A program made the position numbers and the translations under genes. Under the pieces are notes generated by a model. The model searched no databases. It had not been told where the DNA came from and worked only from the letters and a program-made list of their open reading frames with translations. Source: Rhynchopus sp. YZ270_cl-10 (Eukaryota). Taken from it: 64,000 nucleotides of DNA. The stretch is taken from NCBI GenBank assembly GCA_964035575.1, contig OZ037836.1, positions 1,178,001 through 1,242,000 on the forward strand, in the 5' to 3' direction. Position 1 is the first letter of the stretch; each line of letters starts with the position of its first letter. Positions 3,385 to 62,751 of the stretch are shown here, in pieces.

Positions 3385-5095
3385 CCAACTTTTTCTTTTT
3401 TATGTTCCCTTTGGAGGGTGTCTAAATTTGTACTTTTTTTTTCGCTTTTTTCGAAAATTTCCCAGGGTCGGGAGATGAGCAGGGGAGGGAAGAATGTTAA
3501 CTCACAGCCCAGGGTGTCTCCTAATTCTGGAAAATTTTCGGAAAATTCCGACATCTGGAAGCAATTTTTTTCCCTGGAAAAAAAGTGGGTGTTCAGCCCC
3601 AAAACATACCGCGATTGGAATTTCCGGAATCCGTCCGCGCTGTGGTGGGGTCACTTTGCCGAAATAGCCAAGTTCTTGGTTTTCGCCAAAATGAGTGTAA
3701 GGTAAAGGGGGCAGGTAAATCCCACAACCCAGATTTTCTCCCTGATCCTGAAAACATGAAAATGCCCGAAAACACCTGCATTTGCATTTTCGGAAAAGTT
3801 CCGTCCAGCCAGTGGTGGGGTCAATTTGCCAAAATGGACAAGTTCTTGCTTGTGGTCAAACCCGTCAGCGTAAGGTAAAGGGGGCCAAGTGTTTGCCTGT
3901 AGAAACTGGTAGGGAACAGGCAGCGCCGCAGGCGCACGGTACCCAACATACTTTTTTCTGGAAAATACCAAAAAATAAGCACTTTAAACACGTCCCTAAT
4001 TTTTCCGCAAACCTTTTTCCCGGCAATTTTTTTCCAAATCCCGGAAGCGGAAGCAAATTAGGAAACACCCTGACACAGCCCCAACACAAAAAAATTGAAA
4101 AAAACTTTTTTTCAAAAAAACTTTTTTCCCCAAAAATCTCAAAAAAACCTGGGCCGTTGGCAGGCAGGACGCGAACGCATAAAAAAAGTTTGTTTGCCCT
4201 TACACACATAACAACCCCAAAAAAATTGTCCGCAGGTCCACAGAAGTCCCTAAAACCACTCGAAAGTGATTGCCGGACCCCACCGGGGGTGGAATACCCT
4301 GTTTTCGGGTCCAAAATGCGTGTTTTTTCAGTGCTGTCCCCACCTGTAACAGTTGTAACAGTACTGTAACAGTAGCACCTCCCGGCTAAAATGTGGTTTT
4401 TTTTTTTTTTTTTTTTTTTTTACTGGTTTTCTTCCTTGCTTTCGTATTTTTTGTTTTCTGTATCTATGTGGATCCCCCCCAGTGAACCGTTTGGGACCCC
4501 GCTCTGCCGTGGCAGTCGTGGTTAGCGTTGTCATGTTTGTCTGTAGCACACAAGTAAGAAGAGAGACTCTAGGTCTCATTGGCGTCTGTTTCTCAAAAGT
4601 TTGGTTGTTGTTCTACTCTTGTGGGTTGCCGTTAAACGGAAGCGCCTCCCCATTTACCACGAAAATCGGGGGGAACATACAGGCTGCACAGGTTTTTGTG
4701 TATAAAAAAAATTCAAAATTTTCAGCAAAGGCATACAAAAAAATAGACTTTTGGCCCCAAAACCCCCAGAAATCGCTCTGTGCACACATCTGACTGGAAA
4801 AAACCACTTTTCCTCTTGTTTTGGGCTATTTAAAAAAATTGAATTTTTTGATAAATCGCCCTGTATCAAATACCCTCAGAAAACGGTGAAAATGGGGTGA
4901 AAACGCTACAAAAAGTGTCAAAAAAAGCTCTCAAAAGTGCCAAAAAGTGCCCAAAAGGCATCAAATAGTGAGGATATGTCCCAGAAATGTGTTTTCTGGG
5001 GTGGTTTTGTGTTTTCGAATGATTTTTTTGCACTTTTTCATGATTTTTTGGGTAGCGTGACAGCAATTCCCGGTTAGGTGGCACCCCCTACCCCC

Positions 5096-22912: not shown

Positions 22913-24967
22913 TAGGGGTCCGTTTTAGGTCTCTGGCAGGCCGGGCCTTCTTTCTGTGGCCTTCCCAACCAAAAGACCCCCAAAAAACACAGGTACCTGC
23001 TGCGTTTAATGGCACTTTACCCCAGTCCCTGGAACAGATCGGCAAGCCGACCAGCCCAGGTATGCATGCCAACACTACTGGGGGTGCACTGTTCGATAGC
23101 ATAAAAGAAAAGTCAAAAAGTCAAAAAGACAAGAAGGTCAAACAAAATAGGTACTTCGAACAGGGCTGACAGGAGGGGATTCTCACCCGAGGTTCGGTGC
23201 CTGTCAGGCTGCGATTAGTGGTTCTGGGTGATTCCCTTCTTCCTAGCCACCGTTACCGCGTTGCCCGCACCGTAAGAGAGTGGGGACGGTTCACGACCGT
23301 TCGTACGCGTCAGCAAAAGTAGGGGTCGGAGTCCAGGCCCGAACCGGAAACATTAACCTCCGTTTTTCGAAACATTAAAAAGTAAAAATGAAAAAGAAAA
23401 ATCAACAGCAAGAGCAGTGTTGCTGTAAAAGAAACAGCAGCACCGTCAGCTAACATGTCCACACAATATGGCAGACGGCCACACAAAATTCCCCTGATTT
23501 GTACAGAGAAAGTTGTAACTTCTTCCTTACAAGTAAGGGAGTGCCGGCAGGGAAGGAGTTACAACAAACAGTGAACAAACTCAAGTACCAGCCTTTCCGC
23601 GTAGCACAGACCCTACATTTGGTAGTTGGTCTGCCCTACTGCCTCATCTGCACCGTAGCTGGACGCCACGACGACAACTCCTTCATCTATCAACGTACCA
23701 AAGCACGTGAAAATAGAACAAAAACAAACAGATTGGAAAAACAACAGAGCATGTACCTGCAGATCCACAGTTGTTTCACGTACAGTGCATACACCCTGAA
23801 AGCTTAACCTCTTCCTTCTAGCACGGACGTTGGTCTGCCCTACTGCCTCTTCTGCACCGTAGCTGAGCCACGGCGACAACTCCTTCATCTATCAACGTAC
23901 CAAAGCACGTGAAAATAGAACAAAAATAAACACAATGGAAAAACAGCAGAGCATGTACCTGCAGATCCACAGTTGTTTCACGTACAGTGCATACACCCTG
24001 AAAGCTTAACCTCTTCCTTCTAGCACAGACGTTGGTCTGCCCTACTGCCTCTTCTGCACCGTAGCTGAGCCACGGCGACAACTCCTTCATCTATCAACGT
24101 ACCAAAGCACGTGAAAATAGAACAAAAATAAACACATTGGAAAAACAGCAGAGCATGTACCTGCAGATCCACAGTTGTTTCACGTACAATGCATACACCC
24201 TGAAAGTTTAACCTCTTCCTTCTAGCACAGACGTTGGTCTGCCCTACTACTTCTTCTGCACCGTAGCTGAATGCCACGGCGACAACTTGTACCCACCTGC
24301 GAATGAATGTTCGCAGATCCCTTCTTCTACTAACGTATAAAAACGTAAAAACAGACCAAAAACTACAACATGCCACACTGAATTAACGACAGAGCACGCA
24401 CCTGCAGATCCACAGATGTTTCACTACGGTGTACACAGCCTGAGGTTAAACACATAACACAAGAATTCTACTACGGCAAAAAGATGAAAACTGAACTGAA
24501 CTGAACAAAACTACAACACATCACACTGAATACACAAGAGCACGTACCTGCTGATCCACAGTTGTTTCACATACAGTGTACGCACCAACAAAGCAACAAA
24601 ACGTTCCCATGCGGTCAAACGACAACACAGGAACAGCAACAATATTCCGTCACCAGTAGAGACACCGGCAACGCTTCCTTCTTGTACCTGGGATCCCCTC
24701 ATCGGCATCAACACACTCCCAGTCACCGCACAGGTAACAGATCCTTGAAACCCCTCGAAGGGGTTTGCGTAGCCTACATAAGCTGGTGATCTGCCCGAAA
24801 TTGACTGTGATGTTGTGTTAATAACCAGGGTCCCCACATCGGCTTGTTCCTCCTCCGGTCCCGAGCGAATCCATCATTGGAGAGGCGGCCGCCCACGCTG
24901 ACTCAGTACCATGCGAACACGGCGTCCAGGGGCCCCACTTGGCGGTTGGTCAGACGTTAATTGCCCC
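22913..24967 (-). mobile_element. Non-coding retroposed element (element C, SINE/SIDE-like)
   Basis: TSD CTTCTTCGTCTTCGTGAGG at 22894-22912 and 24968-24986; no TIR and no credible ORF; HDV-like fold at the minus-strand 5' end. Confidence 0.8.
23625..24290. repeat. 202-bp tandem repeat inside element C (~3.3 copies plus degenerate copies)
   Basis: Direct repeat units; a related solo unit lies at ~51560-51735. Confidence 0.9.
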
Positions 24968-24968
24968 C
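24895..24968 (-). ncRNA. Candidate HDV-like self-cleaving ribozyme at the 5' end of element C
   Basis: P1 GGGGGC/GCCCCU; P2 CUGAC/GUCAG (extendable); short P3 with L3 GCCAAGU; P1.1 CC/GG; P4 GCCGUG-UUCG-CAUGGU; J4/2 ACUGA. P3 is imperfect. Confidence 0.6.
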
Positions 24969-26680: not shown

Positions 26681-28029
26681 TATACATAGCGCTCTAATTA
26701 GAGTATTAGGGTATAATTAGAGTCTGGGATTTTGGGCCAAGTCAGTTAGAGTCCAGTTAGAGTATAATTAGAGTCGCTTTTCTTCAATTAGACTATAATT
26801 AGAGTGCAGTTAGAGCATAATTAGACTCTAACTACACTCTAATTATAGTCTAATTAGAGTAAAACAACAGGCTTCTTGTAGGTGCAAACGCCGTAAGGAA
26901 CCGGTTCCCCTAAGGTTCCTCTGTAGGACCCAGGTGCCCAGATACCCACATAGCTGAAAATAAGACTTGGGGAACCGAGTTCTCAGCCGGACTGGGACAC
27001 AATATGTGAAGGCGCTGTGGTCCGCCTGAAAGCGGGTCGGGGACCCGGTCGCGGGAGGGTGGGGGCCTAGTCCTAGTCCTACTGTACCTAGTACCCAGTA
27101 CCGGGACTCCCGGCTTATTCTCAGCTATGGGTACCCAGGTACTCAGACCCGCGCAGTGGCACATGCCCTCAAGTGTGAGTGCCCCATACATTAGGGAATG
27201 CGATGCAAAAACTCTTCGTGCACCTCCGGTGCAACGCCGCAGACAGGCCAAGCAGCGTTGGACTCAGAGGAATGCCTGCTGTGCAGGTATCAAACATGAG
27301 AAACTCCCAGCAACAAGGGGCGCCTTTTGGCGGGCATTATTGAAGGTGTTTGGGGTGCAAAATTTTCTACAAATGTTGATGCGCGGGTACAGAAGTGGTG
27401 TCTTGTTCTTTCATCTGTAGGAATGTAAATATCAATCGAATTTAACTACCACTAAGGGGTCGAAGGGGTAATCCCAGTATCAAAGGCTATGTTGACGGGA
27501 AATCTATAGCGAGCATACGTTCATTTCAGCCGAAGAAATACTACTTATGAACCCAGGAGAGATCCAAGCCTCGCGTTGAACAACTACCCGCGATCGACAA
27601 TACCAAAGAGAATTCATAACAAAACAACACTGCCCCATACACACTAAATAGCCATGCTTCAAGTGCATGCCCCTGGGCCAAAATTCCTGTGCTAAAAAGG
27701 CAACAAGACCATCCACAAGGAGTGTGAATTGTGCACTGGTTTTCTGGGGGAACAAACAATATTTTCTTGTGTCTGGTTCTCTGCAAGCAGAGAACAGACT
27801 ATCTGGATTACAAAGTCGAATTTCTTGCACTAGCTATGCCCCCTGGGTTGATGGCTATAGCATTGATTGATGTGCCCCTCTTTATTGACCCTCTTATAGG
27901 ACTCTAATTAGACTCTAATTAGAGTCCAGTTAGAGTATTAGAGTTCAGTTAGAGTTTTAAAGACTCTAATTATACTCGAACTGCCGACTCTAATTATCTA
28001 GTTAGAGTCTAATTGGAGCGCTATGTATA
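26681..28029. mobile_element. MITE-like element, copy 1, 6-bp TSD
   Basis: TIR TATACATAGCGCTC(T/C)AATTAGA; subterminal TAATTAGAG arrays; TSD GCGTGT at 26675-26680 and 28030-28035. Confidence 0.92.
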
Positions 28030-32319: not shown

Positions 32320-32570
32320 CCATACCCTGCCGTACCCTCCCATACCGCACGTTTGCCTTTTTTTTGGGATAATCATGTCCCATACCGTGCCATGCCCTGC
32401 CATACCGTGCCAAACCCTGCCATACCGTGCCACACCCTGCCATACCCGTGCCATACCGTGCCATACCCTGCCATACCCGTGCCAACCCGTGCCATACCGT
32501 GCCATACCCTGCCATACCATGCCAAACCCTGCCATACCGTGCCAAACCGTGCCATACCCTGCCATACCCT
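32320..32570 (+). repeat. Degenerate ~10-bp minisatellite (GCCATACCCT/GCCATACCGT)
   Basis: Direct reading. Confidence 0.9.
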
Positions 32571-32599
32571 CCCGGTGCTGGGTACTGGGTACTGGGTAC

Positions 32600-33416
32600 T
32601 GGCTAATGGCTAATGGCTAATGGCTAATGGCTAATGGCTAATGGCTAATGGCTAATGGCTAATGGCTAATGGCTAATGGCTAATGGCTAATGGCTAATGG
32701 CTAATGGCTAATGGCTAATGGCTAATGGCTAATGGCTAATGGCTAATGGCTAATGGCTAATGGCTAATGGCTAATGGCTAATGGCTAATGGCTAATGGCT
32801 AATGGCTAATGGCTAATGGCTAATGGCTAATGGCTAATGGCTAATGGCTAATGGCTAATGGCTAATGGCTAATGGCTAATGGCTAATGGCTAATGGCTAA
32901 TGGCTAATGGCTAATGGCTAATGGCTAATGGCTAATGGCTAATGGCTAATGGCTAATGGCTAATGGCTAATGGCTAATGGCTAATGGCTAATGGCTAATG
33001 GCTAATGGCTAATGGCTAATGGCTAATGGCTAATGGCTAATGGCTAATGGCTAATGGCTAATGGCTAATGGCTAATGGCTAATGGCTAATGGCTAATGGC
33101 TAATGGCTAATGGCTAATGGCTAATGGCTAATGGCTAATGGCTAATGGCTAATGGCTAATGGCTAATGGCTAATGGCTAATGGCTAATGGCTAATGGCTA
33201 ATGGCTAATGGCTAATGGCTAATGGCTAATGGCTAATGGCTAATGGCTAATGGCTAATGGCTAATGGCTAATGGCTAATGGCTAATGGCTAATGGCTAAT
33301 GGCTAATGGCTAATGGCTAATGGCTAATGGCTAATGGCTAATGGCTAATGGCTAATGGCTAATGGCTAATGGCTAATGGCTAATGGCTAATGGCTAATGG
33401 CTAATGGCTAATGGCT
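32600..33416 (+). repeat. Satellite (TGGCTAA)n, ~116 units
   Basis: Perfect 7-bp repeat. Confidence 0.98.
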
Positions 33417-33478
33417 ACCCGTGCCATACTGTGCCAAACCCTGCCATACCATTTCTTTTCAATGGCCAGCTGTACTGT

Positions 33479-33772
33479 ACTGTGTATACTGTGTATACTG
33501 TGTATACTGTGTATACTGTGTATACTGTGTATACTGTGTATACTGTGTATACTGTGTATACTGTGTATACTGTGTATACTGTGTATACTGTGTATACTGT
33601 GTATACTGTGTATACTGTGTATACTGTGTATACTGTGTATACTGTGTATACTGTGTATACTGTGTATACTGTGTATACTGTGTATACTGTGTATACTGTG
33701 TATACTGTGTATACTGTGTATACTGTGTATACTGTGTATACTGTGTATACTGTGTATACTGTGTATACTGTG
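33479..33772 (-). repeat. Satellite (CACAGTATA)n on the minus strand, ~33 units
   Basis: Reverse complement of the 2730-3384 array. Confidence 0.98.
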
Positions 33773-34021
33773 TACTGCGAAAATTGACCAAAAACGAGAA
33801 CTTGTCCATTTCGGCGAATTGACCCCACCACTGTCCGACGGATTCCGGAAATGCAAATGCCGGCGTTTAAAAGCTCACCAGCGAAAAAAAAGAAATTTTT
33901 CCAACATCTGGAACCCCCCTTTACGGAGCGACAACCGGTAGAAACACGGGGAATCGGTTAAGGCGCCACACCATTGAAACAAACTTTTTCAATACCCTGC
34001 CATACCATGCCATACCCTCCC

Positions 34022-34451
34022 GGTACTGGGTACTGGGTACTGGGTACTGTGTACTGGGTACTGGGTACTGGGTACTGGGTACTGGGTACTGGGTACTGGG
34101 TACTGGGTACTGGGTACTGGGTACTGTGTACTGGGTACTGGGTACTGGGTACTGGGTACTGGGTACTGGGTACTGGGTACTGGGTACTGGGTACTGGGTA
34201 CTGGGTACTGGGTACTGGGTACTGGGTACTGGGTACTGGGTACTGGGTACTGGGTACTGGGTACTGGGTACTGGGTACTGGGTACTGGGTACTGGGTACT
34301 GGGTACTGGGTACTGGGTACTGGGTACTGGGTACTGGGTACTGGGTACTGGGTACTGGGTACTGGGTACTGGGTACTGGGTACTGGGTACTGGGTACTGG
34401 GTACTGGGTACTGGGTACTGGGTACTGGGTACTGGGTACTGGGTACTGGGT
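34022..34451 (+). repeat. Satellite (GGGTACT)n, ~61 units
   Basis: Direct reading. Confidence 0.98.
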
Positions 34452-34473
34452 AATGGCTAATGGCTAATGGCTA

Positions 34474-34730
34474 CCCGTGCCACACTGTGCCACACCCTGC
34501 CATACCGTGCCATACCCGTGCCACACTGCGCCATACCCGTGCCAAACCGTGCCACACCCTGCCACACCCGTGCCAAACCGTGCCAAACCGTGCCACACCC
34601 TGCCACATCCTGCCAAACCGTGCCATACCGTGCCACACCCGTGCCAAACCGTGCCACACCCTGCCATACCCTGCCACACCCGTGCCAAACCGTGCCATAC
34701 CCTGCCATACCCTACCATACCCTGCCCTAC
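34474..34730 (+). repeat. Degenerate GCCA(T/C/A)ACC(C/G)T minisatellite
   Basis: Same family as 32320-32570. Confidence 0.9.
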
Positions 34731-35090: not shown

Positions 35091-36328
35091 TATACATAGC
35101 GCTCTAATTAGAGTATTAGGGTATAATTAGAGTCTGGGATTTTGGGCCAAGTCAGTTAGAGTCCAGTTAGAGTATAATTAGAGTCGCTTTTCTTCAATTA
35201 GACTATAATTAGAGTGCAGTTAGAGCATAATTAGACTCTAACTACACTCTAATTATAGTCTAATTAGAGTAAAACAACAGGCTTCTTGTAGGTGCAAACG
35301 CCGTAAGGAACCGGTTCCCCTAAGGTTCCTCTGTAGGACCCAGGTGCCCAGATGCCCACATAGCTGAAAATAAGACTTGGGGAACCGAGTTCTCAGCCGG
35401 ACTGGGACACAATATGTGAAGGCGCTGTGGTCCGCCTGAAAGCGGGTCGGGGACCCGGTCGCGGGAGGGTGGGGGCCTAGTCCTAGTCCTACTGTACCTA
35501 GTACCCAGTACCGGGACTCGGGACCCGGCTTATTCTCAGCTATGGGTACCCAGGTACTCAGACCCGCGCAGTGGCACATGCCCTCAAGTGTGAGTGACCC
35601 ACACATTAGGGAATGCGATGCAAAAACTCTATGTGCACCTTCGGTGCAACGCCGCAGACAGGCCTCTACAAATGTTGATGCGCGGGTACAGAAGTGGTGT
35701 CTTGTTCTTTCATCTGTAGGAATATAAATATCAATCGAATTTAACTACCACTAAGGGGTCGAAGGGGTAATCCCAGTATCAAAGGCTGTGTTGACGGGAA
35801 ATCTATAGCGAGCTTACGTTCATTTCAGCCGAAGAAATACTACTTATGAACCCAGGAGAGATCCAAGCCTCGCGTTGAACAACTACCCGCGATCGACAAT
35901 ACCAAAGAGAATTCATAATAAAACAACACTGCCCCATACACACTAAATAGCCATGCTTCAAGTGCATGCCCCTGGGCCAAAATTCCTGTGCTAAAAGGGC
36001 AACAAGACCATCCACAAGGAGTGTGAATTGTGCACTGGTTTTCTGGGGGAACAAACAATATTTTCTTGTGTCTGGTTCTCTGCAAGCAGAGAACAGACTT
36101 GCTGGATTACAAAGTCGAATTTCTTGCACTAGCTATGCCCCCTGGGTTGATCGCTATAGCATTGATTGCTGTGCCCCTCTTTATTGACCCTCTTATAGGA
36201 CTCTAATTAGACTCTAATTAGAGTCCAGTTAGAGTATTAGAGTTCAGTTAGAGTTTTAAAGACTCTAATAATACTCGAACTGCCGACTCTAATTATCTAG
36301 TTAGAGTCTAATTGGAGCGCTATGTATA
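35091..36328. mobile_element. MITE-like element, copy 2, 6-bp TSD
   Basis: Near-identical to 26681-28029 but lacking ~115 internal bp; TSD TTTATT at 35085-35090 and 36329-36334. Confidence 0.92.
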
Positions 36329-40258: not shown

Positions 40259-42116
40259 GTCTTTGTTGTGGTTTTGTGTTCTGATCTCTGTGTGTGGTGG
40301 TGGGGTGTGGAGGACAACAAGCCTGCAGTCCTTTTCAAGAACCTTGCCAAAAATAAATGTTGGAGAAGGGCCCCCTCTCACCTCCCCTGCCTCACACAAC
40401 CCACAGACGTTCACCGCAACACATATCGCCCCTCCCTACCCTCCCTGGTAACGGCACATACGTGACCCTCCCTCAACATCGTGTCGAGAGCATCTGTCCC
40501 CACTGGTCGCCAGCACCTCTCTCTGGTGGAGCCACGCCAGCAGTGATGTGCCACGTCATGCTGTCGGTGGTGGCACACATCTGATGCTCGTGTCCATCCG
40601 CGTTCCGAACCTGCCCCCTCCACCCACGTCCCTTCCTCTGCAGCAAAGTGCACAGCACCACACACCACACGTCACGTGTTGACACCATGTGGCTACGTGC
40701 CTTTTGCTGCACACACACCCCTCCCTCCCTCCCTCCCTCCCTTCCCTTTGCCTCGTGCATGTGAAGATCAAGATCGTGTGATGTGTAAGATGGAGAGTGA
40801 AAGCGAGAGCGTAATGGTCTGCAAAAAATATAGTAGATTCGATACTTTTTTTGCTGTTGTCATTTATTTATTGTTTTCACTTTGGCACTGCTTTTTGTAC
40901 ACAAAAGGCCTGTTTTCAGCCACACCAATCCAGGATGCCGTAATTTTTTTGGAAACTTCGCTGTATTAGTGTAGACTGATGCCATATCAGTTCCGCAGTC
41001 ACCCCCTTCCACGTCGTCATTGTGCGTGTCTCTGTCGCTTCTGGCTTTGCTCGGGGGATTCGTCTCTGCTTCGTTTCGGACGTGCTTCAACCACAAGCTT
41101 CCTCAGCTTCCCGTTCCTCACTTCGTTGGACACAACACTGCTGCAGCCGGAAAGGTAAATGCTCGTCAACGAAGTGCAGTTCTCAACAAATTCTGTAGTA
41201 TCATTCCAAGTCAAACCAATCGACGTCACATTGCTGAGTGCTGACAAATCCCGGGATGTTAAGCTGCTGCAGTTCTGAAGGAAAAACGGACCAACCTGCG
41301 TCACATTGCTGAGTGGTAATAAATCGATGGTGGTTAAGCTGCTGCAGCCGGAAAGAAAGGCGTGCTTAATCTGCGTCACATTGCGGAGTGGTGACACATC
41401 CAGGGTTGTTAAGCTGCTGCAGTTCCAAAGGAAGCATGCGCCAACCTGCGTCACATTGCTCAACCCAGAGAGGTCGACACTTGTCAACGAGATGCAGTGT
41501 GACAGGAAGCTACCTCCAATGTGAGTCACAATGGACTCAGCACTGAGATCAAGTCTCGTCAACGAAGTGCCCGACAAGAACTCATTTGGAATGACAGTCG
41601 CAACCTCCGCCTGCAGAAGCAAACACGCCACCTCAGGATCCCTCACACTCTCCAACTTCTCGGCTTCGATAAACGTTTTTAAAAATAGGATGGAGCACCC
41701 CGGTCCGAAAAGGAATGCAGCCACCCCTGGCTTCAGGCTCGCGAACCCAGCGTTGATGTAACACAGGGTTTCACGGGCCAAAAACCAGAAAAAAAATGAA
41801 AAATTGAGGGTTCAACGACTGCGCCAACTGGTCTCATGCGCCGTTGAACCAACTTAAAATCTAGAATCTTGTGTCAACTTGTAAAGAAAAGCAATGAATA
41901 TTAAAAATTACCGGTTTCAGGCGTGGCGTACACGTCTGCTGCCATCTACGCTGGGATAGCAGTCCGGCTTGAACTTGGGGTCCAACAACAGTGCCAAGTG
42001 GACTTATGCGTCGCTGTGTCAACTGAAAAACAATGAAAAACAAGAATGTCGTTGAGGAAGATTGAAATGCATGAAAAAACAAATGCATGGAAAAACAAGA
42101 AGAACAAGGTAAATCT

Positions 42117-43098
42117 CTACAGAGGGTGCTGTCCTAGCTTGTCCTCTTTCGTTGTCTCGCCCACACTAAGCTTCTCAACGGCCGTGCAGGCGAGCTTTGT
42201 GGCGTTCACGTTGTTACTGCTGTCGATGTGCACCAACGTGATGCTTCGGGTCGCTCTCAGCTTGTCAAGCTCACCCCGCGCCTCTTTCTGGAGGTGGGCG
42301 ACTGCCGCGTATGGTCTGCAGTGCTCGTTCACCTGGTCAACCACGGTTCTACTGGATCCGTAGATGTTCAGTGGTGTGGTGTCTGTGACGCTCTTCAGGT
42401 ATTCGAGGCACATCAGCAGTCCTTTATACTCCGCGACGTTCAGGGGTGTGTCCGCCAGGCGACTACTGGCTGTCCACCGCACCTCGCCGTCTTTCTCGAG
42501 GCGTGCTCCAGCGCCCGATCCCTGGCAAGTGTTTTTCTTCACCCTCGCCCCCGGCTGCCTCACGTTGCAGTATCCGCCGAAGAAGATGCGAGTGTGTCCG
42601 GTGGGTTTCTTAGGTTTGCGTCGATCCTGCTTCTGCTGCTTCTGCTCAGCAGCCAAACGGATGTGCTTCGCAATTCTGTCTGCTCTCTCCTGTTTGCAGT
42701 CCTCTTCTAGGGGTGGGAGCTCTGTGTTCGTCCAGGATTTGTTTCCGTTGCAGAGGGTTGGCAGGGACCGGATCGTCTTGAGCACCTCAGCTGGTTCGGT
42801 GAGGATGGGTCGTCTCGTGATCGCTAGGGTTCCCCACTTGATGCCTAGGTCTAATGGGGCGAACACTTTGCTCCTGGGGTAGATGGTGCCCGAGAAGAGG
42901 TACGCGTTTGCTGCCACTATCTTTGCCTTAGCCATCCAGTTGCTGAACCAGGTGATTTTGTCGGTGATCATGGAGCTCTCTCGGGAATTGGGTTCCTCTG
43001 TGGTGAGCTTTGCTCCTGTGTGCGCTTCGAAGTCCAGCGCCAGCTCCAGGTGCGAGACGTGCTGTGATTTCCCATTGGACACCGTCGGCCACTTTAGG
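42117..43098 (-). CDS. Frameshifted C-terminal part of element A ORF2 with degenerate RNase H-like domain
   Basis: WLE/LKWP aligns with WLAALRWP of element B, implying a frameshift near 43098. RIFFGG..GSGAGA..NVAEYKGL..IYGSSRTVVDQV..NVNATKLA follows the RNase HI (RVT_3-type) pattern. Confidence 0.8.
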
Positions 43099-46000
43099 CT
43101 CCAGCCACTCCTTGAGTGCGAGGTATCCTTCCGCTTTGTACGGCCACGCGTCTGGCACCTCGTCAGGAAGTACTCCTATGTAGGTCTCGTATGGGCCTTC
43201 TGGTTCCCATGTCCAGGGAAAATTGTCCATTTGGCTCGTCTTCGTTGTAGTGGTACCGCGTTTTCTCTTGTCCTCCCTCTCTAGGGCGATGTCTGAGTAC
43301 ATGAGAAGCAGCAGCTCTAGGGCTTCTCTGTTCGGCACTTCCGGAATCATCTGGAAGCCGGCGGGGAGAATGGCGTTGAGGCGCAGGCATTTCGGCCAGC
43401 TTTCTCTTACTGCTGGATCGGACACTCCTGCGTATTTGTGCTGTTCGCGTATGTGTGCGGTGTGGCTGCATTGTTCCCACATGTGTTCAAAGTCCTCCAC
43501 ACCTGTGCCGCAGTGCTCGCACGTGTCACTGGTGCTCATCTTCATTCTTTTGCGCCTGTCCTGTGTGAGCTCCGCTCCTGCAAGAATGTTCCTCATGTAC
43601 CCTGCACGCAGTGGATCTGTGTTCTTGTAGCTGTTCCACACGGCGTTGATTGTGCGATAATCGATGCCATCTTTAACCCCTTGCATGTCCTCCCTCCTTG
43701 TCTCGAGTCTACGGCAAAAATCGTCCCTGATACCGTCTCGGAGTTGGTGTCGAAGGAGGTCACCCTCGGGTTCGTCGAGGTTCATCTGTGTTGTGTGCGG
43801 GGGCAATAGGGTGTTGTTCTCCCAGCGCCAGTTCATGGATTGGGTGGTGCGGAGGAGGATGTCTACCGGTCCACAGTATTTTACTCTCGACGTCCGCTTC
43901 AGGATACGGATCTCGTCTATTAGGGTTCTAATCTCCTGGTTCTTCCCCATGGTGTAGAGCGCGAGCAGGCGTTGGTACTTGAGGTAAGATGTTGGGTCTG
44001 TCCGGTGTAGCGGGTTCAGCACTCCCCTCACTATTTCACTACATCTGCTAGGTAGGCCCCTCCAAATCGCCGCCGTCACTGCTTTGGTGAGCCTTCCAGC
44101 GGTGGTGGACAGCGGCTCGTACGTCTCGCAGCCGTAGAGTGCCATGGGTATTATTTTTGTCGCCACCAGTTCGGCTCTGCCTTCAAAGGGGACGTTGAGG
44201 TGAGGGATACGTCGCGCACATGTCTCAGCTTTGCGCACTCGCTTGTCCAGCTTTGTCGCTGCTTCCTTTTTCTTGGCTACGGCCAGTCTGATCACTGCGC
44301 CGAGGTTGTCCAGTTCCTTCTTTTCCTGTCTCAGCTGGGTGTCTCCGAGCATGAGCTCCAGCTTTTCGGTCTTGGCTGTCGAGAAGGAGAAACTACTTCC
44401 GTACGTGAGGTCAGTCTTGGTGGCGAAGTCGTGGGACACTGTGAGGCCTTTCCTCAATTGTGCGGTGTTGTTCGAGGTCATGGTGGTGTCGTCCGCGTAC
44501 AGGCTTGTCCGACATCTGGCTTCCGTCCGAACCGCCGCCTCCCACACTGCTAGGAGGGCGTTCAGCAGGATAATGCTCAGCGCACATCCCTGCAGAATGC
44601 CATTGTTCGCTTTGAACTCCTCACCGACCGTACCGTATAGTTTGAACCGCCTCTTCAGGTCCCTGTACATGCTCTTGAGGGGCCGCGTGATCTTCATGTC
44701 GATCCCCATTTTCTCCACAAGACTGAAGGTTATGTCCCACGGTATGGTGTCGAAGCATTTCTTAATGTCCAGAAATACTCCTCGCAGCGTGTTCCCCGAC
44801 ACCATTGCTTTTTCGACCAGGAGTGCGGTGAGGTAGAAAGCGTCACGTGTTCCGTGCCCAGTCCTGAAGCCGTGCATGGATTCCGGTGCCCATGTCTCTT
44901 GCCACACCATCAGGCTCGTCAACCTTGTCTTTGCCCATAGCCGATATACCGCCGACATCACGGAAATTGGTCGGTGGTCGAGTGGTTGTGGGTCCTCCAC
45001 CTTGGCGATCATGCTCACGGTCGCGTGGAGGAGAGCTTCTGGCCATATGCCCGTCTCTTCTACTTGGTTGAGGATTGATGCCAGCCTGTCGAAGATCCCC
45101 GTTGGGAGAAGCGCAAGTTCTTCTGGGTGCCAGCCGTCTGTGCTGGGGGCCTTCCCCTTCGGCATGCTCTCGGCCACGGCTTTCAGCATCCTTCCGGTGA
45201 GGGGTTCTACGTGCATCGGCCGTTGAGGTATGTGTGTGCCAAACCTTTCCTCGAACGCTTCCCACGTGGGTGTGTCACTCAGGGTGTTGTGCTTTTGGAG
45301 TATGGGAAGCCATGCCTCACGCAACCACGTGTCCATGTCCTCCACATTCGCGGTCTCTTCCGTCCCGCGCTTCATCGTGTTGCACCGCACTTTGGCTCCG
45401 TTGAGGCGCTTGTAGATAAGCCCTGGTGTGGTGTGCCATTGCGTGCGTATCATACGATATCTTTGCGTGGCCCTGTCCCTCTCCAGGTTCTTTCTGGCAG
45501 TTTCGAGTCTCTGGTGCAGGCGCTGTATCAGCTCCAGTGTCGTGCTGGCCTGCGGCTCCTCCTCTGGGGTAGCGTCGAGAATGCTCACCAGCCCTGCCTT
45601 CGCTTTGTCCCACGCCTTGCGTGCGCTGGGTGTGAGGGCTCCTTTGGTGCGTAGAGTGTTGCCGACCTCTGTTAGTCTGCGGATCGTCTTCCGGATGCGC
45701 GTCATCTTGAGGGTCTCTCCTGCGTCGCCTTCGCGAGACTGTCTGCTGCACAGCCAGGTGCGTCGAAGTTTGGGTGGTCGGCCTTTGCGGAAACATGCTG
45801 CTGAGTTGTCGTCTCCCTGCCGTGCCCAGAAGTTGGTCGCATCCTCATTCCATGCTTTCCACTTGTCCTCTACCAATGTGCTTGTGTGCCATTGTGCTTT
45901 GGAACCATCGCAGATCTCTTCAGCCTCCTTTTCCAGGTCTGCCTTCGTTTTCTTCCTGCTCAGTTCATCCTGTTGTAGCATAGGGGCCCTTTCCTGCTTG

Positions 46001-47556
46001 AGCACACGCTGCCTGAACGTCATATTCTCAAATGTCGCGTCCAGGGGGATGTGTGAAGGTATTCCGGCCGTCCCCGTTTTGCACCCTGCCAGCGCAAGCA
46101 CCGCAATCTGGTTGGCCAGGATGATGTCAATTCGTGAGCACACACTTTTGGCTTCAGACTTTGTGCTCTTACCGATGTGGGTGTGCTCTGGCTCTTGGTT
46201 GGCCCAGCCCGCGGCTCGTTCGGCACAGTCCGTCCATCGTTCTGAGCTGATGGCTAGGGATATTGCTTCGCTTGAGCTGGGTTCTGGGTGGCTGTTGCAA
46301 TCCCCGAGGATAATCGCTGGTACGTCCCCTATCTCTGCTTCTGCAAATACATCCGATAGGAAGCTCTCGCGCTCTTGCTTTGCTTGCGGGGAGTTGCCGA
46401 CTTTCGCGTATATCACGAATAGGTGTAGAAAATGGTTCCCTGCCCCATGTGCCACCTTTGCGTGCAGGTAACGCTTTGAGTCCCAGAGTCTCTTTGCTCG
46501 TTCAGTATCTCTCCTGACCACACTTGCTGGTATGCCTCGTTTCACCATTAGGCCCACCCCCTTGTGTTCTCCGTAGCTCTGTTGTATTGCGTTTGGAAGT
46601 AACTTTACTGGGCACCCCCAGAGACCTGTCCAGCCTTGTTCATACAGCGTTCGGGAAGCTTGGGCCTGTTTCTTCTGTGTGAGCCGGGTCTCCTGCAGTG
46701 CGACTATGTCGTTGTCCCAACTCCACACCTCCTCCTGGTGAGCATTCATTGAGGTGATGTTGGCAGTACGTATGGACAGGTTTGGAGTGGCCCGGGCAGC
46801 GCGGCGTCGCTTTCTCTCCGTCTTGGTACGTTTCCGTGAGCGAGACACTGCGATATTCGTGTCCAGGTTCTCCAGCGTGACACAGCGGTTGCCCTCTGCC
46901 TGCGTCGTTGCAATCAGCGACAACAGCCCCTCGGTTGCTTTGAGGCGGTCGAAGTGCTCGGGCCTGTACGTGAGCACAACTGGGTTCGATGTAGGTGGTC
47001 CGCCGACGTGGCTAAACCGTTTCGCTCTGGCATCCAGTACCCAGATGGCCCTGTCGAGTATGCTTGCCGCAGTCTGTAGCTCACGTTCTCCACCGTACGT
47101 TCCTTGCATTCTCATTTTGGCTAGGTGTTGCGTGTAGGTGGAAGGTTCGTTTGCCTCAGGAGAGTAGCTGTCAGCATAGAGGTCACTGTCGTCGTTTTGC
47201 AGTACGTCCACCACCCGTTGTCGCAGTGAGTTCGTTGTCCACCCCTCGCTCTGCTCAGCTATGGCAGAGAATAGGCAGTCCCCGTCTGGCGCTACTGCTA
47301 TCCTTGTAGAGTTGATACTGCGGGCTGTTGCGTCCAACCACTCCTTGTGGTCGGTGATGGCCCTCAGTGGGTTCACGGGATTGTCGTTGTTTTTGGGGTA
47401 GGCGCTCCTACCTATCCCCGGTTCTATGTGCGATTCTAAGTACGTATCTAATCTAGTGGGGGGGGTGAGGTGGGGGAGTGGAGGGGTTGGGTCTAGAATC
47501 AAACGAACAGGAGATCGTTGATCTCGTCCGCAATCGCCTTCGACTCCTTCTTCCAC
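43099..47556 (-). CDS. Element A ORF2: OTU protease - APE endonuclease - reverse transcriptase - Zn finger
   Basis: OTU: VAPDGDCLF (Cys 47275-47277), YGGEREL, EHFD. APE: TANI, ALQET, LGDCN, SRIDII, PSH. RT: RPIS, HGFR, LDIKKCFD, GILQGCALS, YADD (~44490). Zn finger CEHC..H..C. Confidence 0.95.
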
Positions 47557-49030
47557 CGCTCCATCTCCTCCGTCCCCTCCGTCACCTTTCCCGCCCCCTT
47601 TCCCATCTTTCCGCCGTCCTTCGACTTGCCCTTTTTGCGCTGGGGGGGGCCCGACCCGAAGATGTCGTCCATTGTGCTTCCCTTTCCCGCGCCGGACGAC
47701 TTTGACCCCTTTTGCTTGTTGGGGGTGGTTGGTGGCGACAGTGTCTCGGTCGCGGTTTTCGGCTTTACCGTCTCGTTGGCCTTCACATCACAGTCCTTCG
47801 TGTCCTCCGTGGTGCTTTGTTGTTGTTGGAGCGGAGAGGGTGGGTGAGCCGGTTCCGCGTTGGTGGTAGGCTGGAGTAGCCTGAGGAGGTGGGCCAGGTG
47901 CGCGTCCGTCGCCTCCTGTCGTGCCTCCGCTGCACACTGCCGAGCCACCACCGTCGCCAGCGCCGCGTTCATCTCCTCCTGAGCTTTGTTGTTACTGATA
48001 ACTGCAGAGAGGATTTGCTCCCGCTGAGCTTCCGCGTTTGTCGCCAGTTCTTCCGCTCTGGTGGCGTGGCTGTCCATCTTGGACAGTTGGAGCACTTGAC
48101 GCTCTAGGAGCGCTTCAATGCCCTTGCCCATTTGTAGAAGAGGGGTGGTGATAGAGGTGAGGTCGGCCGGTGTTGCGTTGTGGTTCTGATGCTGTTGGGG
48201 AAGTTGGTGCTGAACTACGCGCTGCATCCATGCCAGCTCCAGCTTCTGTCCCTGTTCGAACAGCTTTTTGCCTCTGTCCGCGCCGTACTCTGCTACAAAT
48301 TCTTGGCTGGTGTATTTTACCTTCCTGTTTCTCTCTGTGGGGTCAGGTACCCGTGTAGGAAGCTGTTGGTGGGTGTCTGCTGTGGTGGTGACGGTGCTGG
48401 TATCTCTTGCTACTGCAGGGAGGATTGACACCACTAGGCTCTGCCACTTGACGCTGCTGTGCGGTGGCTGCGTCTCTGCGCGCACCACGAGGGTCTTTTC
48501 CCCCGTTCTGCCCTTGCTGAGCAGCGTCACCACCCGCGCCCCCTCCCACTTCATCGCCTTCAGTGCCGCGATGCAGTCCTGCTTCGTTGCGGGGGGAGGA
48601 ACCGGCCTGAGGTCGAAGAGCTGGGTGGTGGTGTGCGTTGTGGTGCTGTCGGGTATCTCGAACGTGAATGTGGGGGCGTCATCCATCGCCTCCGGGGCAC
48701 CACCGCTGCTACCTCCCCTTAGCCTACCCAGCTCCCACACGTTGCAGTGCGTCCTGCACATCCGGAGCGACTCCTTGTCGCTCATGTCCCTCCCGTTGAT
48801 GGTAAGGCGGTGCACGTCCCTGCGTCCACCTGTCTTCGCGCGCACTGCCGCCTTCAGGTCAGCCACCGAGTCCGTGTCGCTGACGTCCACTGTCACTGTC
48901 TTTCCAGTCAGCGTTCGCACAAAAATCTGCCTTTTTACCTCTTCATTTTCTTCTTCTTTTTGTTCCGAGTCTTTGCCGCAGTCCTCTGCGTTGCCCGGGG
49001 TCACCTCGTGGAGGTGCTCGGTAAAAACCC
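47499..49030 (-). CDS. Element A ORF1: N-terminal ubiquitin domain (48711-48929, ends RLRGG), coiled coil, basic tail
   Basis: QIFVRTLTGKTVTVDV...DLKAAV...RL...GRLRGG aligns with ubiquitin; Q/A/E-rich heptad region; the frame is open to the element 5' end and in frame with the host UBL. Confidence 0.88.
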
Positions 49031-49031
49031 C
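48965..49031 (-). ncRNA. Candidate HDV-like self-cleaving ribozyme at the 5' end of element A
   Basis: GGGGUU-UUUA-CCGAGC-ACC-UCCACGA-GGU-GACCCC-GGGCAA-CGCAG-AGGA-CUGCG-GCAAA-GACUCGG. P1, P2, P3/L3, P1.1, P4 and the J4/2 C (48975) are in HDV order. Confidence 0.78.
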
Positions 49032-50035
49032 ACTCTCCAACTTCTCGGCTGTGATGTCTGTCACACCCAACGCATGAAGCTCTGCAATGGCTTCGTACTT
49101 CTGCGACTTCTTCGTGAGGATGATTGTGTCACCAGCACTCAGCTGCGTCATGTCCGCTCCTTCTCCCATCGGTTCGCCTCCGAAACTCATGCAAAAGCCG
49201 TCTTCAGGCAACCCCATTGCAGTCGCCACCTTCCGCCGCATCACCGCAAGTGTATCATCCTCACCCAGCTCGACCGTATGCTTCACTCCGTTCAACCCCT
49301 TGATAGTCAAATCCATATTTGTGTCGCTCTGTATCATAGGTAACGGAGGGTGATGGTGATGTGGAGAAGGTGAGGAGGTGTGGGGGAAATAAACAAGAGT
49401 TTCTTTTTTTTTAGGCCTCGAGCATGGTCATGCACGGATTCGGGTGTTTGCACGATGGCGAAGCAATGGGAGGTACATGTAACTATAGCTACATATAGCA
49501 TTACATGTCTTGATGGGATTATCCGGAAAGACGGGACATAGTTACATTTTCATTTTTCATTAGGAATTCATGTACTTTTTGCAGAGTATAAATATTCCCC
49601 TACGCCGTCTGCTTTAATCGTATGCAACGAAATAAAGGTGGGCAAGAGAGAGGAGCCTAGGGGGAAGTGTTCCACTCTTGAGTATCAGGTGTGTCGGCAG
49701 AAGGTCTGATTCAAAGAAGACTTGGTGAAGCAGGGTGGGGAACAATTCTGCAATTCGTTGTTGAGAACTGCGAGTCGAAATAACATTGTTCTCGGGGTGT
49801 AGTGGTGGGGGTCATAACTAAACAGCACCAAACTTCAGGCACAATTTGGTGCTAGTGCATGTAACATTATGCTAATATTACATGCTACATGTAACATTAC
49901 AAGGTCTGACTGGTGTGGGTAGGGGCTTTGGTGGGTTACGGTCAAGATTATCCGAACCAGAGGACGCAAGCAGACATACTGCCAGAGACCCTCCACCTCG
50001 GGGAGGTGCTGCCCTGCCACCAACACACCACGTCG

Positions 50036-50875: not shown

Positions 50876-51994
50876 CTGTTTGTTGTGGTTTTGTGTTCTG
50901 ATCTCTGTGTGTGGTGGTGGGGTGTGGAGGACAACAAGCCTGCAGTCATTTTCAATGAAGGGTTGAAGGGCAGGGGTTCTTTGAGTACAATCGTACCATC
51001 GTGGGTTGGGCACATATACCCAGGTACCGACGTGCGGTTTTGTTAAATTGTTGAGTAGTGTAGTTGCCTCGGTTGTGTTGCCACAGTTGTGCAATCTCCA
51101 CTTTGTATCTCTCTGTTTTGTGCAGGTGTTTTCAATTGGGGGTGAGAGTACGCAAGAGACAACAAACAGTCATAAGGGGAGAGGTCTTTTGGTATGCTAC
51201 TTTTGTCCGAATATTTGTGAGAACAGTATTTAGAAGTGGTTGGTGATAACTTACTCGGATTTTCCGTTTGAGAGGAAGATAACCGGAGCCACGGCACTCT
51301 TCGTGTGCTGTGCCACGTTCTCCCCCACATTCCTTCCTCCCAGCCTGGCAGCGAAACAGCCGCACTGACACTAGAGCATCATATAAGCTGGCCTGACTGC
51401 AAAACAAATGAAAGAAGCAATGCACAAAACCCTAACATATGGCGTGCTAATAAAGAAGGGCGACCACCTTGTGTGTTGCGCTTCCTGTCCCCATGCACCA
51501 TCCCCGAATATGCTTTCAAATGACATAGGTTCGTGATACTGGATAAACAACAGCGCACGTCAGTTGTCTCACGTACAGTGTATACACCCTGAAAACGTAA
51601 CCCCTTCCCTCTGGCACAGACCCCACCTTGGGCAGATGGTCTGCCCTACTGCCTCTTCTGCACCGTAGCTGAGTGCCACGGTGACAGCTTGTACCCACCT
51701 GCGAAAGAATGTTCGCAAGGTCCCTTCTTCTACTAAGGGAAAACAAACTTTTCGTCTGCGTGCGCGTCGGGACGTCCCCCAGAAAAACCCAGGCAGGCAT
51801 GCAAAAAAAAGTTTGTTTTAATGGTGTGATTTTCCTAAAAATTAGGTGTAAATTGGGTACTTCTTGGGTCCTTCTTGGGTATAGTGATTTTCCTTAGGGC
51901 ACTTCCTTAAGGAAAACGTGATCTTTTTCCCGAGCTTTCCCTGTGGTTAGTAGCCTTGTTTTCGCAAAAATTTTCTCAAAATCCGGGATTGGCA

Positions 51995-52632
51995 CCCAGT
52001 ACCCAGTACCCAGTACCCAGTACCCAGTACCCAGTACCCAGTACCCAGTACCCAGTACCCAGTACCCAGTACCCAGTACCCAGTACCCAGTACCCAGTAC
52101 CCAGTACCCAGTACCCAGTACCCAGTACCCAGTACCCAGTACCCAGTACCCAGTACCCAGTACCCAGTACCCAGTACCCAGTACCCAGTACCCAGTACCC
52201 AGTACCCAGTACCCAGTACCCAGTACCCAGTACCCAGTACCCAGTACCCAGTACCCAGTACCCAGTACCCAGTACCCAGTACCCAGTACCCAGTACCCAG
52301 TACCCAGTACCCAGTACCCAGTACCCAGTACCCAGTACCCAGTACCCAGTACCCAGTACCCAGTACCCAGTACCCAGTACCCAGTACCCAGTACCCAGTA
52401 CCCAGTACCCAGTACCCAGTACCCAGTACCCAGTACCCAGTACCCAGTACCCAGTACCCAGTACCCAGTACCCAGTACCCAGTACCCAGTACCCAGTACC
52501 CAGTACCCAGTACCCAGTACCCAGTACCCAGTACCCAGTACCCAGTACCCAGTACCCAGTACCCAGTACCCAGTACCCAGTACCCAGTACCCAGTACCCA
52601 GTACCCAGTACCCAGTACCCAGTACCCAGTAC
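51995..52632 (+). repeat. Satellite (CCCAGTA)n, ~91 units
   Basis: Reverse complement of the GGGTACT array. Confidence 0.98.
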
Positions 52633-54272
52633 CAAAGGGCCGATGGAGGGTTCCGAGACGGCGATAGCCTGCGACACTATGTCATGGGAAGGTGGGATAC
52701 TAGCTTGCGCCGCAGGCGCACGGTACGCTACTTTTATTGTTTCGGCGTATCCTTTTTTCTCACTCTTCGTTGGGTTCCACGAGCTCCGCCCGTCAAATGA
52801 TGGGGTGTAAAATTCGCATCTACGCAAACTGCCCCACGTTCATTTTGTACTTTTCCTTCAGAAGTCAAGTACTGACCATATTTTGCACACAGAACCTGAA
52901 AATGGCCTGTAAAAACTGACACATGCATTTTAGGTCAAAAATACTCATTTCTGAGCGCAAAGTGACCCCATCACAGCACGTACAGGCTCCGGTGCACCGA
53001 AATCAAAAAATTTTTTTTTTGATTTTTTGTGGGGAAAAATTTCTGGGGAAATTTTCTGGCCACAAAAAACCACCAAAAAGATGTACACAAAATAATTTTA
53101 GCACCCCCAAAAAAAAAAGGTGTAAAAAAGGTCCTTCTAAGGTCCTTCTAAGGTATACCACTACCCTTGTATAGGTCACACCAAAATTAGATATTTTATT
53201 ATCGCGCAATTATGGTCGAGTACAAAAATCCGGCGGGTTCCAAGAAGGTAATCAGAACCTGGAGTGAGGGTGGTATGGTGTTAAGTGTGAGTGTGAGTGA
53301 CAAGTAAAGAGAAAATGTGCAGATGGGCTCTTCACAATCATTAGCCATGTGCTCGGCAGTCTTGTTCGAACTACGGCTACTTGGAAGACGTCCGTCGTCT
53401 ATTGTGTGTATTTGTATGGATCTTTGTGATTTTTTGTTGATTTTTTTTCAAAAAAAAAATTTTTTTTTGTGTCCAAAAAATGTGTTCCCCATGTCGTGGC
53501 AGGCCGAAAAAAAATTTTTTTTTCGCGTGTAATTATTTCCTTAATTTTACTGTCAAAAATTTTACGGCTATTTTATACACAATCCTTAATCCCACTAGTG
53601 GGATTAAGGATCTTAAAAATACTTTTTTGGTCAGGATTTTTGTACGAGACCTTAATTGCGCGTTAATAAAGTGAAATAAAATCCTTTTATTTTCACGCAC
53701 TGTTTCCGCTCAGAATACACCACTATTTCAGGCCATTTTTGGCTTAAAAAAGTCCAAAAATGAATTATTTTGTGTCAATACAGTGAATACAGCGCGTCTG
53801 TGACACACAACGCGGATAAGTCGACCTGTGTGGGCACATGTGCGGCGTGACTGTGTCGGCATACAAGGCAACATGTGTCTGCGACACACTACCACCAGTG
53901 GAGTGGGATTGGGTCACTTGCGCTGAGAAATGCATATTTTTGACCGGAATGATTTGTGAGTGTATTGATGTGTTTGTTCACAGGTGCCAGCCAGTTTTAA
54001 AACAGGGTCGTGAGTGCACGCTACAGCGTGCCGCGAACTGCGTGTGTGAGTGAAGCTGCCCAGCACGCACACTCCATTTGTCACCAAAAAAGTGAGATAC
54101 TATGTGCATAAAAACCACGATTCTGCCTCAGGACTTTTCCAACTTGCTTTTTGGGCCGTCACAAACACCACCGTAGACAAAACACGTATATTTTTTCATA
54201 ACACCTACCCTATTTGACTGCCCCCCTGTAGAAATTGTACTTTGACCTCCTCAAACGCTGAATAAAATATTG

Positions 54273-60950: not shown

Positions 60951-61167
60951 CATACATGGTAAGCGAACAAAAAATTCGCTTTATTCGCTTTTGGTTCGCT
61001 TTTTTATTCGCTTTATTCGCCGGCGAATAAAGCGAATAAAGCGAACCAAAAGCGAACGAAAAAGCGAACAAAAAGCGAATAAAAAGCAACGTATTTTTTG
61101 TCAAGTCTAGTGTGTCGAGTCTAGTCCCCCGAGATCCCCCAATACCCGCAACGACGCCAAAATAAGG

Positions 61168-62157
61168 CTACTGTACTGTACTGTACTGTACTGTACTGTA
61201 CTGTACTGTACTGTACTGTACTGTACTGTACTGTACTGTACTGTACTGTACTGTACTGTACTGTACTGTACTGTGCTGTACTGTACTGTACTGTACTGTA
61301 CTGTACTGTACTGTACTGTACTGTACTGTACTGTACTGTACTGTACTGTACTGTACTGTACTGTACTGTACTGTACTGTACTGTACTGTACTGTACTGTA
61401 CTGTACTGTACTGTACTGTACTGTACTGTACTGTACTGTACTGTACTGTACTGTACTGTACTGTACTGTACTGTACTGTACTGTACTGTACTGTACTGTA
61501 CTGTACTGTACTGTACTGTACTGTACTGTACTGTACTGTACTGTACTGTACTGTACTGTACTGTACTGTACTGTACTGTACTGTACTGTACTGTACTGTA
61601 CTGTACTGTACTGTACTGTACTGTACTGTACTGTACTGTACTGTACTGTACTGTACTGTACTGTACTGTACTGTACTGTACTGTACTGTACTGTACTGTA
61701 CTGTACTGTACTGTACTGTACTGTACTGTACTGTACTGTACTGTACTGTACTGTACTGTACTGTACTGTACTGTACTGTACTGTACTGTACTGTACTGTA
61801 CTGTACTGTACTGTACTGTACTGTACTGTACTGTACTGTACTGTACTGTACTGTACTGTACTGTACTGTACTGTACTGTACTGTACTGTACTGTACTGTA
61901 CTGTACTGTACTGTACTGTACTGTACTGTACTGTACTGTACTGTACTGTACTGTACTGTACTGTACTGTACTGTACTGTACTGTACTGTACTGTACTGTA
62001 CTGTACTGTACTGTACTGTACTGTACTGTACTGTACTGTACTGTACTGTACTGTACTGTACTGTACTGTACTGTACTGTACTGTACTGTACTGTACTGTA
62101 CTGTACTGTACTGTACTGTACTGTACTGTACTGTACTGTACTGTACTGTACTGTACT
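61168..62157 (+). repeat. Satellite (CTGTA)n, ~197 units
   Basis: Direct reading; one variant unit. Confidence 0.98.
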
Positions 62158-62751
62158 CCCCGAGAAAACCACTTTTTTGGGATAATTCAGCGCATTAGAA
62201 AATTTTGCGACCCCGCTCGGTTAGAACCGTGACTCTGTGTGACCCTTACCACCGTGAGAGTAAACACCAAAAAACGGGGAAAATAAAAATAAAAAGGGGT
62301 ACCCCCTCCAAATTCCCCGTGGTTCGCCCGTATGTCTCCCGCGGTTGTACCGCGTACAACGGTTCACACCATTTTGGCCATTTTTTCACAAAAAACCAAT
62401 TTTTTTTAATCAGGAAAGTATCTGTAGAGGTCGTCAGGTGGTTTAATGGGATATTTGGGTGATCCCCAGGGCGATTTGCGGCCAGGTACGACCTTTTTGG
62501 TGGGTTTCTTCACCTAAATTTCAAAAAAATGGGTTTGTGACAGTATTTGTACAGGGATTTAGACACCACTGCGCCCCCTAGAGGGGGGGGAAGCTGAGAA
62601 AACCGTATTATTTTGTCTGTTTTGTGCATAGCTGAAAGGGAAAAAGAAAGAAAACTTGAAAGATGTACCGCAACACATCTTCACCACCATCGCATGAGGG
62701 AACCAGAAAAAGGCGGACAAAACCCACAAACCAAATTCAACCCACGTTCAT

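Follow-up and report, generated by a model that had tools for sequence, protein, structure and literature searches.

Element A, a 7.4-kb LINE lying in sense orientation within a host ubiquitin-like/LRR gene, begins with a predicted HDV-like ribozyme. By analogy with known retrotransposons, this ribozyme, which heads a target-specific LINE at its 5' end, probably cuts the host co-transcript immediately before G49031 of the window (the whole 64,000-nucleotide stretch of Rhynchopus sp. YZ270_cl-10 DNA analysed here). In L1Tc and R2, ribozyme cleavage frees the element from a host co-transcript (PMC3185411, PMC3774820, PMC6765202). In element A, Mg2+-dependent cleavage would likely yield an uncapped 5'-OH RNA starting at G1 (G49031), and this RNA would be the template for reverse transcription. 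Use of the cleavage-released RNA as template would explain the 5' boundary shared by the copies, and release by cleavage would allow the element to exploit host transcription. The features of the locus are listed below, with the basis of each in parentheses.

49032..49316, minus strand: 5' part of the host gene, ATG at 49316, ubiquitin-like N-terminus, 95 codons (record P0075)
49031..49050, minus strand: 5' copy of the 20-bp TSD, host coding sequence (repeat comparison)
48965..49031, minus strand: predicted HDV-like ribozyme (fold and register, RF02682 match, strict descriptor)
48930..48964, minus strand: A-rich acidic linker (copy comparison)
48711..48932, minus strand: ubiquitin unit of ORF1, residues 34-107 from G1, ending RLRGG (Pfam and alignment)
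47499..49031, minus strand: ORF1, 510 codons from G1 (open frame)
42117..47787, minus strand: ORF2, with OTU protease, AP endonuclease, RT, zf-RVT and RNase H-like regions (Pfam)
41666..42116, minus strand: 3' UTR without a poly(A) tail (sequence)
41646..41665, minus strand: 3' copy of the TSD, beyond which the host gene continues (repeat comparison)
24898..24968, minus strand: second predicted HDV-like fold, at the exact 5' end of element C (relaxed descriptor and fold)

Predicted fold and position of the ribozyme

Along the minus strand from 49031 to 48965, the predicted helices followed the HDV order P1, P2, P3, P1.1, and P4. P1 (49031-49026/49002-48997) consisted of 6 bp, five Watson-Crick pairs and one U-G pair. 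P2 (49021-49017/48969-48965) had 5 bp and an extra C49016-G48971 pair across one bulged A, and P3 was formed by 49015-49013/49005-49003. The L3 sequence was UCCACGA, in agreement with the U-C-C-N-C-G pattern. In P1.1, C49011 and C49010 paired with G48995 and G48996, followed by the GGGCAAC junction, and P4 (48990-48986/48981-48977) was capped by loop L4 (48985-48982). J4/2 contained C48975 at the catalytic position and A48972 downstream, which we take to be in the registers of HDV C75 and A78, respectively. The pairing check confirmed the helix order, L3, junction, and J4/2 cytosine proposed in the initial annotation, as well as its P1 of 6 bp instead of 7.

The predicted cleavage point was between U49032 and G49031. 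G1 paired with C, not U, and a seventh P1 pair, U49032-G48996, was possible at the cost of a P1.1 base. The 20-bp TSD, of which G49031 was the final base, supported the earlier proposal that the ribozyme starts at the exact boundary of element A with G1 as the last TSD base. G49031 could equally be element-derived, because each of the 9 empty sites in host paralogs of the window carries a G at this place.

Organization of element A

Beyond the ubiquitin unit, ORF1 showed no Pfam family, homolog, or Atlas lead, and the best 150 matches of an ORF1 HMMER search were P0076 plus ubiquitin-repeat matches. ORF2 retained the Cys and His motifs of OTU. Compared with the contigs from each of the 4 runs, the window copy lacked 2 nt near 43099, and this deletion shifted the frame of the RNase H part; other copies of element A had an intact 1753-aa ORF2, and ORF2 was 99% identical among copies. 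Two ORFs were present in the window copy and most records, and both were joined as one long ORF in P0057. The open frame of ORF2 overlapped ORF1 by 289 nt (47787-47499) in the -1 phase. Because of this overlap, the lack of a Met/AUG in ORF2 ahead of the OTU Cys motif, and the G-GGA-AAG heptamers within the overlap (47688, 47604, and 47592), ribosomal frameshifting from ORF1 into ORF2 is possible. The last bases of element A (window 41666-41700, minus strand) varied among copies and resembled the host bases before the TSD, which suggests priming by microhomology.

Host gene family and insertion sites

The host family consisted of ubiquitin-like genes with BspA-type LRRs, and at least three elements had inserted in it, making it a hot spot like RHS. 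About a dozen paralogs, whole or partial, were arranged in tandem on one strand (window 8000-64000, minus), and an intact one at 50875-50036 had Pfam ubiquitin and LRR_5 domains. We compared protein records for 15 of the 19 members of the ORF2 cluster and all three members of the ORF1 cluster. The peptide encoded by the ribozyme occurred in at least six distinct records. Full-length junctions were readable in four records (P0075, which is the window's own, P0057, P0054, and P0076), all four in the host codon phase, and the same host motif lay upstream of each, in different paralogs or behind the 3' end of another copy. This motif was also upstream of the 5'-truncated records P0053 and P0048. 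Several insertions thus occurred at one codon position of a host multigene family, indicating target specificity. The identical 5' boundary of other copies behind differing upstream sequences supported the full-length 5' end that the initial annotation had deduced.

P0076, P0048, and one contig junction adjoined the 3' end of another copy, which represents tandem insertion. One of the two contig junctions was tandem without a gap. The other was located in a paralog and was one G short (place 49030, runs X1 and X3), and therefore it was out of phase, with a damaged or shortened P1. P0050 and P0077 were called from a GUG inside the ribozyme, so their junctions could not be read and are possibly out of phase. 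In-frame junctions are over-represented among protein records, and the phase agreement across copies is to be counted as a single event because both the target and the 5' end are fixed. Contigs of run X4 did not cover 48993-49046, and viral contigs contained no relative.

Element C (24968-22912, minus strand; 19-bp TSD), which was non-coding and unrelated to element A, occupied a second insertion site in the host family, within another paralog. Its longest stop-free stretch was 120 codons. In its predicted ribozyme fold, G1 was again the last TSD base, P1 had 6 bp with a G-U first pair, and P4 was capped by UUCG; read in the host frame, the fold reached a stop after five codons. A relaxed descriptor, loosened after this fold was seen, gave 4 matches in the window versus 318 in 491 controls (0.65 expected per window), and no Rfam match was obtained for the fold. 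Window matches of this descriptor at 37756 and 22217, in duplicate host 3'-end sequence, were judged to be chance. Element C also contained internal tandem repeats of about 180 nt, and by eye the host paralog of P0054 appeared to carry both C and A. Element B (11258-8791, minus strand; 18-bp TSD) was a 5'-truncated LINE of another family at a third site, in the LRR region of the same host family, with 22% identity to the C-terminal part of element A ORF2. The window also held long arrays of short-period tandem repeats (2600-3400, 32400-34500, 51800-52800, and 61000-62200) and perfect inverted repeats forming hairpins (726-899, 26770-26871, and 35180-35281); these arrays and inverted repeats yielded spurious Rfam miRNA matches.

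Conservation of the ribozyme and a probable partner family

Over 48860-49046, nine variant positions were listed among copies: a single one in the ribozyme (base 1 of loop L4), seven in the 35-nt linker, and one at the start of ubiquitin. The scarcity of variants in the ribozyme gave Fisher P = 0.08 against 48879-48964 and P = 0.002 against the linker alone, the latter being a post hoc window. One single-copy contig had two more differences, outside the listed variants. Positions of the catalytic core were invariant among the covered copies. The ribozyme showed no true covariation, because the copies were near-identical and the sole listed variant lay in the L4 loop; relative to the RF02682 consensus, the letters of P1, P2, and P1.1 changed with pairing kept. 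The seven linker substitutions, three of them synonymous, distinguished the subfamilies and involved no indel or stop.

A second family had the ribozyme of element A in common, and its alignment departed at 48948. In run X1 the contig depth of this family was 1640, against 398 and 377 for the two ORF1 subfamilies, a difference of about fourfold; depth is not copy number. A contig of similar depth to the second family differed in the 3' UTR (window 42035), and the second family probably also has part of the 3' UTR of element A. By analogy with NARTc/RIME, this more abundant family is likely to be a non-autonomous partner.

Open frame and translation of ORF1

Starting at the host ATG (49316), the open frame passed without interruption through the TSD, ribozyme, and linker into the ubiquitin unit. 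The 67 nt, or 22 codons in the ORF1/host frame, were stop-free as the initial annotation had stated; this is ordinary by itself, since P was 0.52 in shuffles and two of the three frames were open. As a correction to the initial annotation, the frame started not within the element but at the ATG of the interrupted host gene. The stop-free frame alone is not evidence that the ribozyme is translated, whereas the host-phase junctions and the Met-less ubiquitin are. The chance of a stop-free frame from G1 up to ubiquitin was 0.22; combined with the chance of host phase, this gave about 1/3 x 0.22 = 0.07. In both subfamilies, Arg replaced Met1 of the ubiquitin unit, and the first in-frame AUG (48785) was internal to the ubiquitin domain. 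Because the ubiquitin lacks a start Met, ORF1 needs either non-AUG initiation or the host AUG. A three-codon uORF in the linker (AUG at 48946) was rejected as a start mechanism, as it was out of frame and absent from the other subfamily.

With the host AUG, ORF1 might be read on uncleaved message through the ribozyme, although we lean against this route. An OTU enzyme, of the host or of the element, would then cut behind the ubiquitin GG and so remove the variable leader, and this trimming would do the job of the 2A peptide in L1Tc/ingi. From the sequence, such read-through translation with trimming at the ubiquitin GG is plausible, with the balance somewhat on the other side. Ribozyme-assisted non-AUG initiation of ORF1 on the cleaved RNA is the alternative, and its chances are about even.

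The strongest competing explanation, to which we give even odds, accepts an active ribozyme and regards the open frame as incidental, with host phase a matter of luck. ORF1 would be initiated in an IRES-like manner at a non-AUG codon that lies within the ribozyme or directly behind it, or a spliced leader would be added in the linker; it thus departs from the cleavage explanation on translation only. The stop-free probabilities given above for the 22 codons and for the stretch up to ubiquitin agree with it, as do the out-of-phase contig junction and the early stop in the ribozyme of element C. IRES-like activity has also been proposed for the R2 and L1Tc ribozymes (PMC6765202, PMC3383444). However, all four readable full-length protein junctions were in host phase, and the frame of the linker was kept despite seven changes in its A-run. 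The partner family was also open for 10 more codons in the same frame, a weak observation made by eye.

If cleavage by the ribozyme is combined with read-through, the LINE may parasitise a protein-coding family for transcription as well as translation, and the 67 nt would be both ribozyme and peptide linker; we consider this broader proposal rather unlikely. Cleaved RNA would then become the reverse-transcription template, uncleaved capped RNA would be translated from the host AUG, and the ubiquitin/OTU pair of the element would trim the fusion to a uniform ORF1 protein. The weak 6-bp P1 could tune the ratio of cleaved to uncleaved RNA. In HDV mutagenesis, a 6-bp stem I reportedly cleaves more slowly than one of 7 bp, and slow cleavage would suit such dual use of transcripts.

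Rfam, chance, and folding statistics

A match to Rfam RF02682 was obtained at 48963-49031 with 37.2 bits (E = 1.8e-5 for 401 nt; E = 0.0029 window-wide). Its gathering score is 44, and RF00094 scored 18 against 50; no family reached the Rfam gathering level at the ribozyme. The Infernal-type check suggested in the initial annotation found an HDV relative, but below the gathering score. A strict descriptor, composed after inspection of the sequence, had a single match on both strands of the window (128 kb), exactly at 49031, and 79 matches in 705 Markov-resampled windows, corresponding to 0.11 expected per window. The nested MFE of the ribozyme segment was unremarkable (z = -1.67), as a double pseudoknot would lead one to expect. 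When 100 nt of host leader was included, the probabilities of P1 and P3 were 0.01-0.02 in nested folding, for which pseudoknots are outside the model, so the host sequence may compete with the ribozyme fold. Host sequence formed a competitor duplex with the P3/P1 3' strand at -10.7 kcal/mol. An alternative 5' strand of P1 from upstream host sequence was weaker (-5.2 vs -8.8 kcal/mol) and was rejected.

It is improbable that these data reflect an HDV-derived relic with little or no cleavage, retained for use as an internal promoter or as a hallmark bound by protein, as in inactive Pr77 copies. A relic would fit the 6-bp P1, the sub-threshold Rfam score, and the competition by the host leader, and there are precedents in the loss of activity in some Pr77 hallmarks (PMC4035085) and the abolition of R2 cleavage by P1 defects (PMC3774820). 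Against it, the catalytic core was intact and invariant among covered copies, the family is young, with near-identical and intact ORF2 copies, and element C independently has a 6-bp P1. Chance folding within ordinary coding sequence was largely refuted and is extremely improbable: the modest nested MFE and the post hoc descriptors would allow it, but the only strict match in 128 kb coincided exactly with the element boundary, against 0.11 matches expected overall, the Rfam HDV match was independent, and the second family has exactly the ribozyme segment in common.

The exact 25-nt ribozyme pattern had no match in metagenome contigs. No ribozyme was found by an Rfam scan of 9 of 33 related metagenome loci or by the relaxed descriptor on the first 15 of the 33, most of which were without a 5' end; an antisense relaxed-descriptor match in L010 was judged to be chance.

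Discussion

Trypanosomes are already known to have LINEs headed by ribozymes, partner SINEs, and hot-spot gene families, and precedents for ribozyme-headed retrotransposons are given in PMC3185411, PMC3383444, PMC4035085, and PMC6765202. If read-through is incidental, the element A ribozyme is another case of a well-known type. With the predicted ribozyme, the range of HDV-like retrotransposon ribozymes comes to include an OTU-LINE lineage of diplonemid type, and elements A and C provide two natural candidates with a 6-bp P1. The RHS-like hot-spot family has three insertion sites, each used by a different element. The translation of uncapped, ribozyme-processed retrotransposon RNAs is an open question, for which element A offers a clean test: its first domain is AUG-less, and the two start routes are separable by single mutations. 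In the literature searched, mostly without subscription papers, we found no in-frame targeting of protein-coding families, no OTU or ubiquitin in non-LTR elements, no combination of an in-frame ribozyme with a ubiquitin/OTU module, and nothing on diplonemid ribozymes; the word "ribozyme" had 0 whole-word occurrences in the main text of the D. papillatum genome paper.

Named homologs were those of Diplonema papillatum, D. ambulator, and Rhynchopus humris; several of them had OTU, and their origin points to a diplonemid-type host. None of the 44 and 49 homolog matches was a named trypanosomatid protein. A 2A-like NPGP-type motif was seen within the N-terminal part of nine homolog proteins and three loci (L002:202, L008:450, and L003:1596); in relatives, GDVExNPGP or GEASNPGP often lay just before the endonuclease, and other relatives had OTU there. 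No NPGP-type 2A motif was present in P0001/P0002 of element A. A quick RT tree of 28 homologs, containing no ingi sequence, placed element A with P0080, P0081, P0082, and P0104, and OTU and 2A labels on it were not significantly clustered.

The closest covariance model, RF02682 (HDV-F-prausnitzii), resembles the element A ribozyme in its compact layout, the C before P3, the bulged A of P2, and the GGCAAC junction. RF02682 is bacterial, with a 7-bp P1 and U-A in P1.1, whereas the element A ribozyme has C-G in P1.1. For HDV-like ribozymes, P1 is given as "~7 nt" (PMC3774820), and the L1Tc ribozyme starts with C1 (PMC3185411).

Like R2, element A is site-specific in a repeated transcribed target and is predicted to be released by an HDV-like ribozyme (PMC3774820). 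R2 uses the non-coding 28S rDNA target and a restriction-like endonuclease, whereas element A is of the APE type and uses an mRNA-coding family. Target bases can form the 5' end of P1 in R2 (PMC3774820), whereas in element A no more than a single target base (G1) can be part of P1.

Ubl-LRR genes are not RHS genes, and the host family parallels the RHS hot-spot system as an analogy. As with the Trypanosoma RHS family and ingi/RIME/L1Tc, the insertion site is fixed in the 5' coding region of a multigene family, and the RHS site sometimes holds several elements (PMC7563717). RHS insertions give rise to nonsense or frameshift pseudogenes (PMC7563717), whereas in the Ubl-LRR host the frame is kept into ORF1. 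Among the elements themselves, the closest parallels to element A are L1TcRz/Pr77, an HDV-like ribozyme that cleaves at +1 and lies within the first ~70 nt of a LINE with APE, RT, and RNase H, and L1Tc/ingi with NARTc/RIME, in which the ribozyme is common to the LINE and a likely non-autonomous partner and a processing signal lies near the N-terminus (PMC3185411, PMC4035085, PMC5814959). Element A has the APE, RT, and RNase H of L1Tc/ingi and lacks their single ORF with 2A, poly(A) tail, and ~12-bp TSD. In L1Tc/ingi the ribozyme is described as 5' UTR, and the element has a single ORF with 2A, ends in poly(A), and is flanked by a TSD of ~12 bp, whereas element A combines an in-frame ribozyme with two ORFs, has ubiquitin and OTU in place of 2A, lacks poly(A), and is flanked by a TSD of 20 bp. 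Some chimeric RHS/ingi ORFs that are in frame were reportedly noted by Bringaud in 2002, and if these chimeras hold, the in-frame arrangement of host and element in element A has a precedent.
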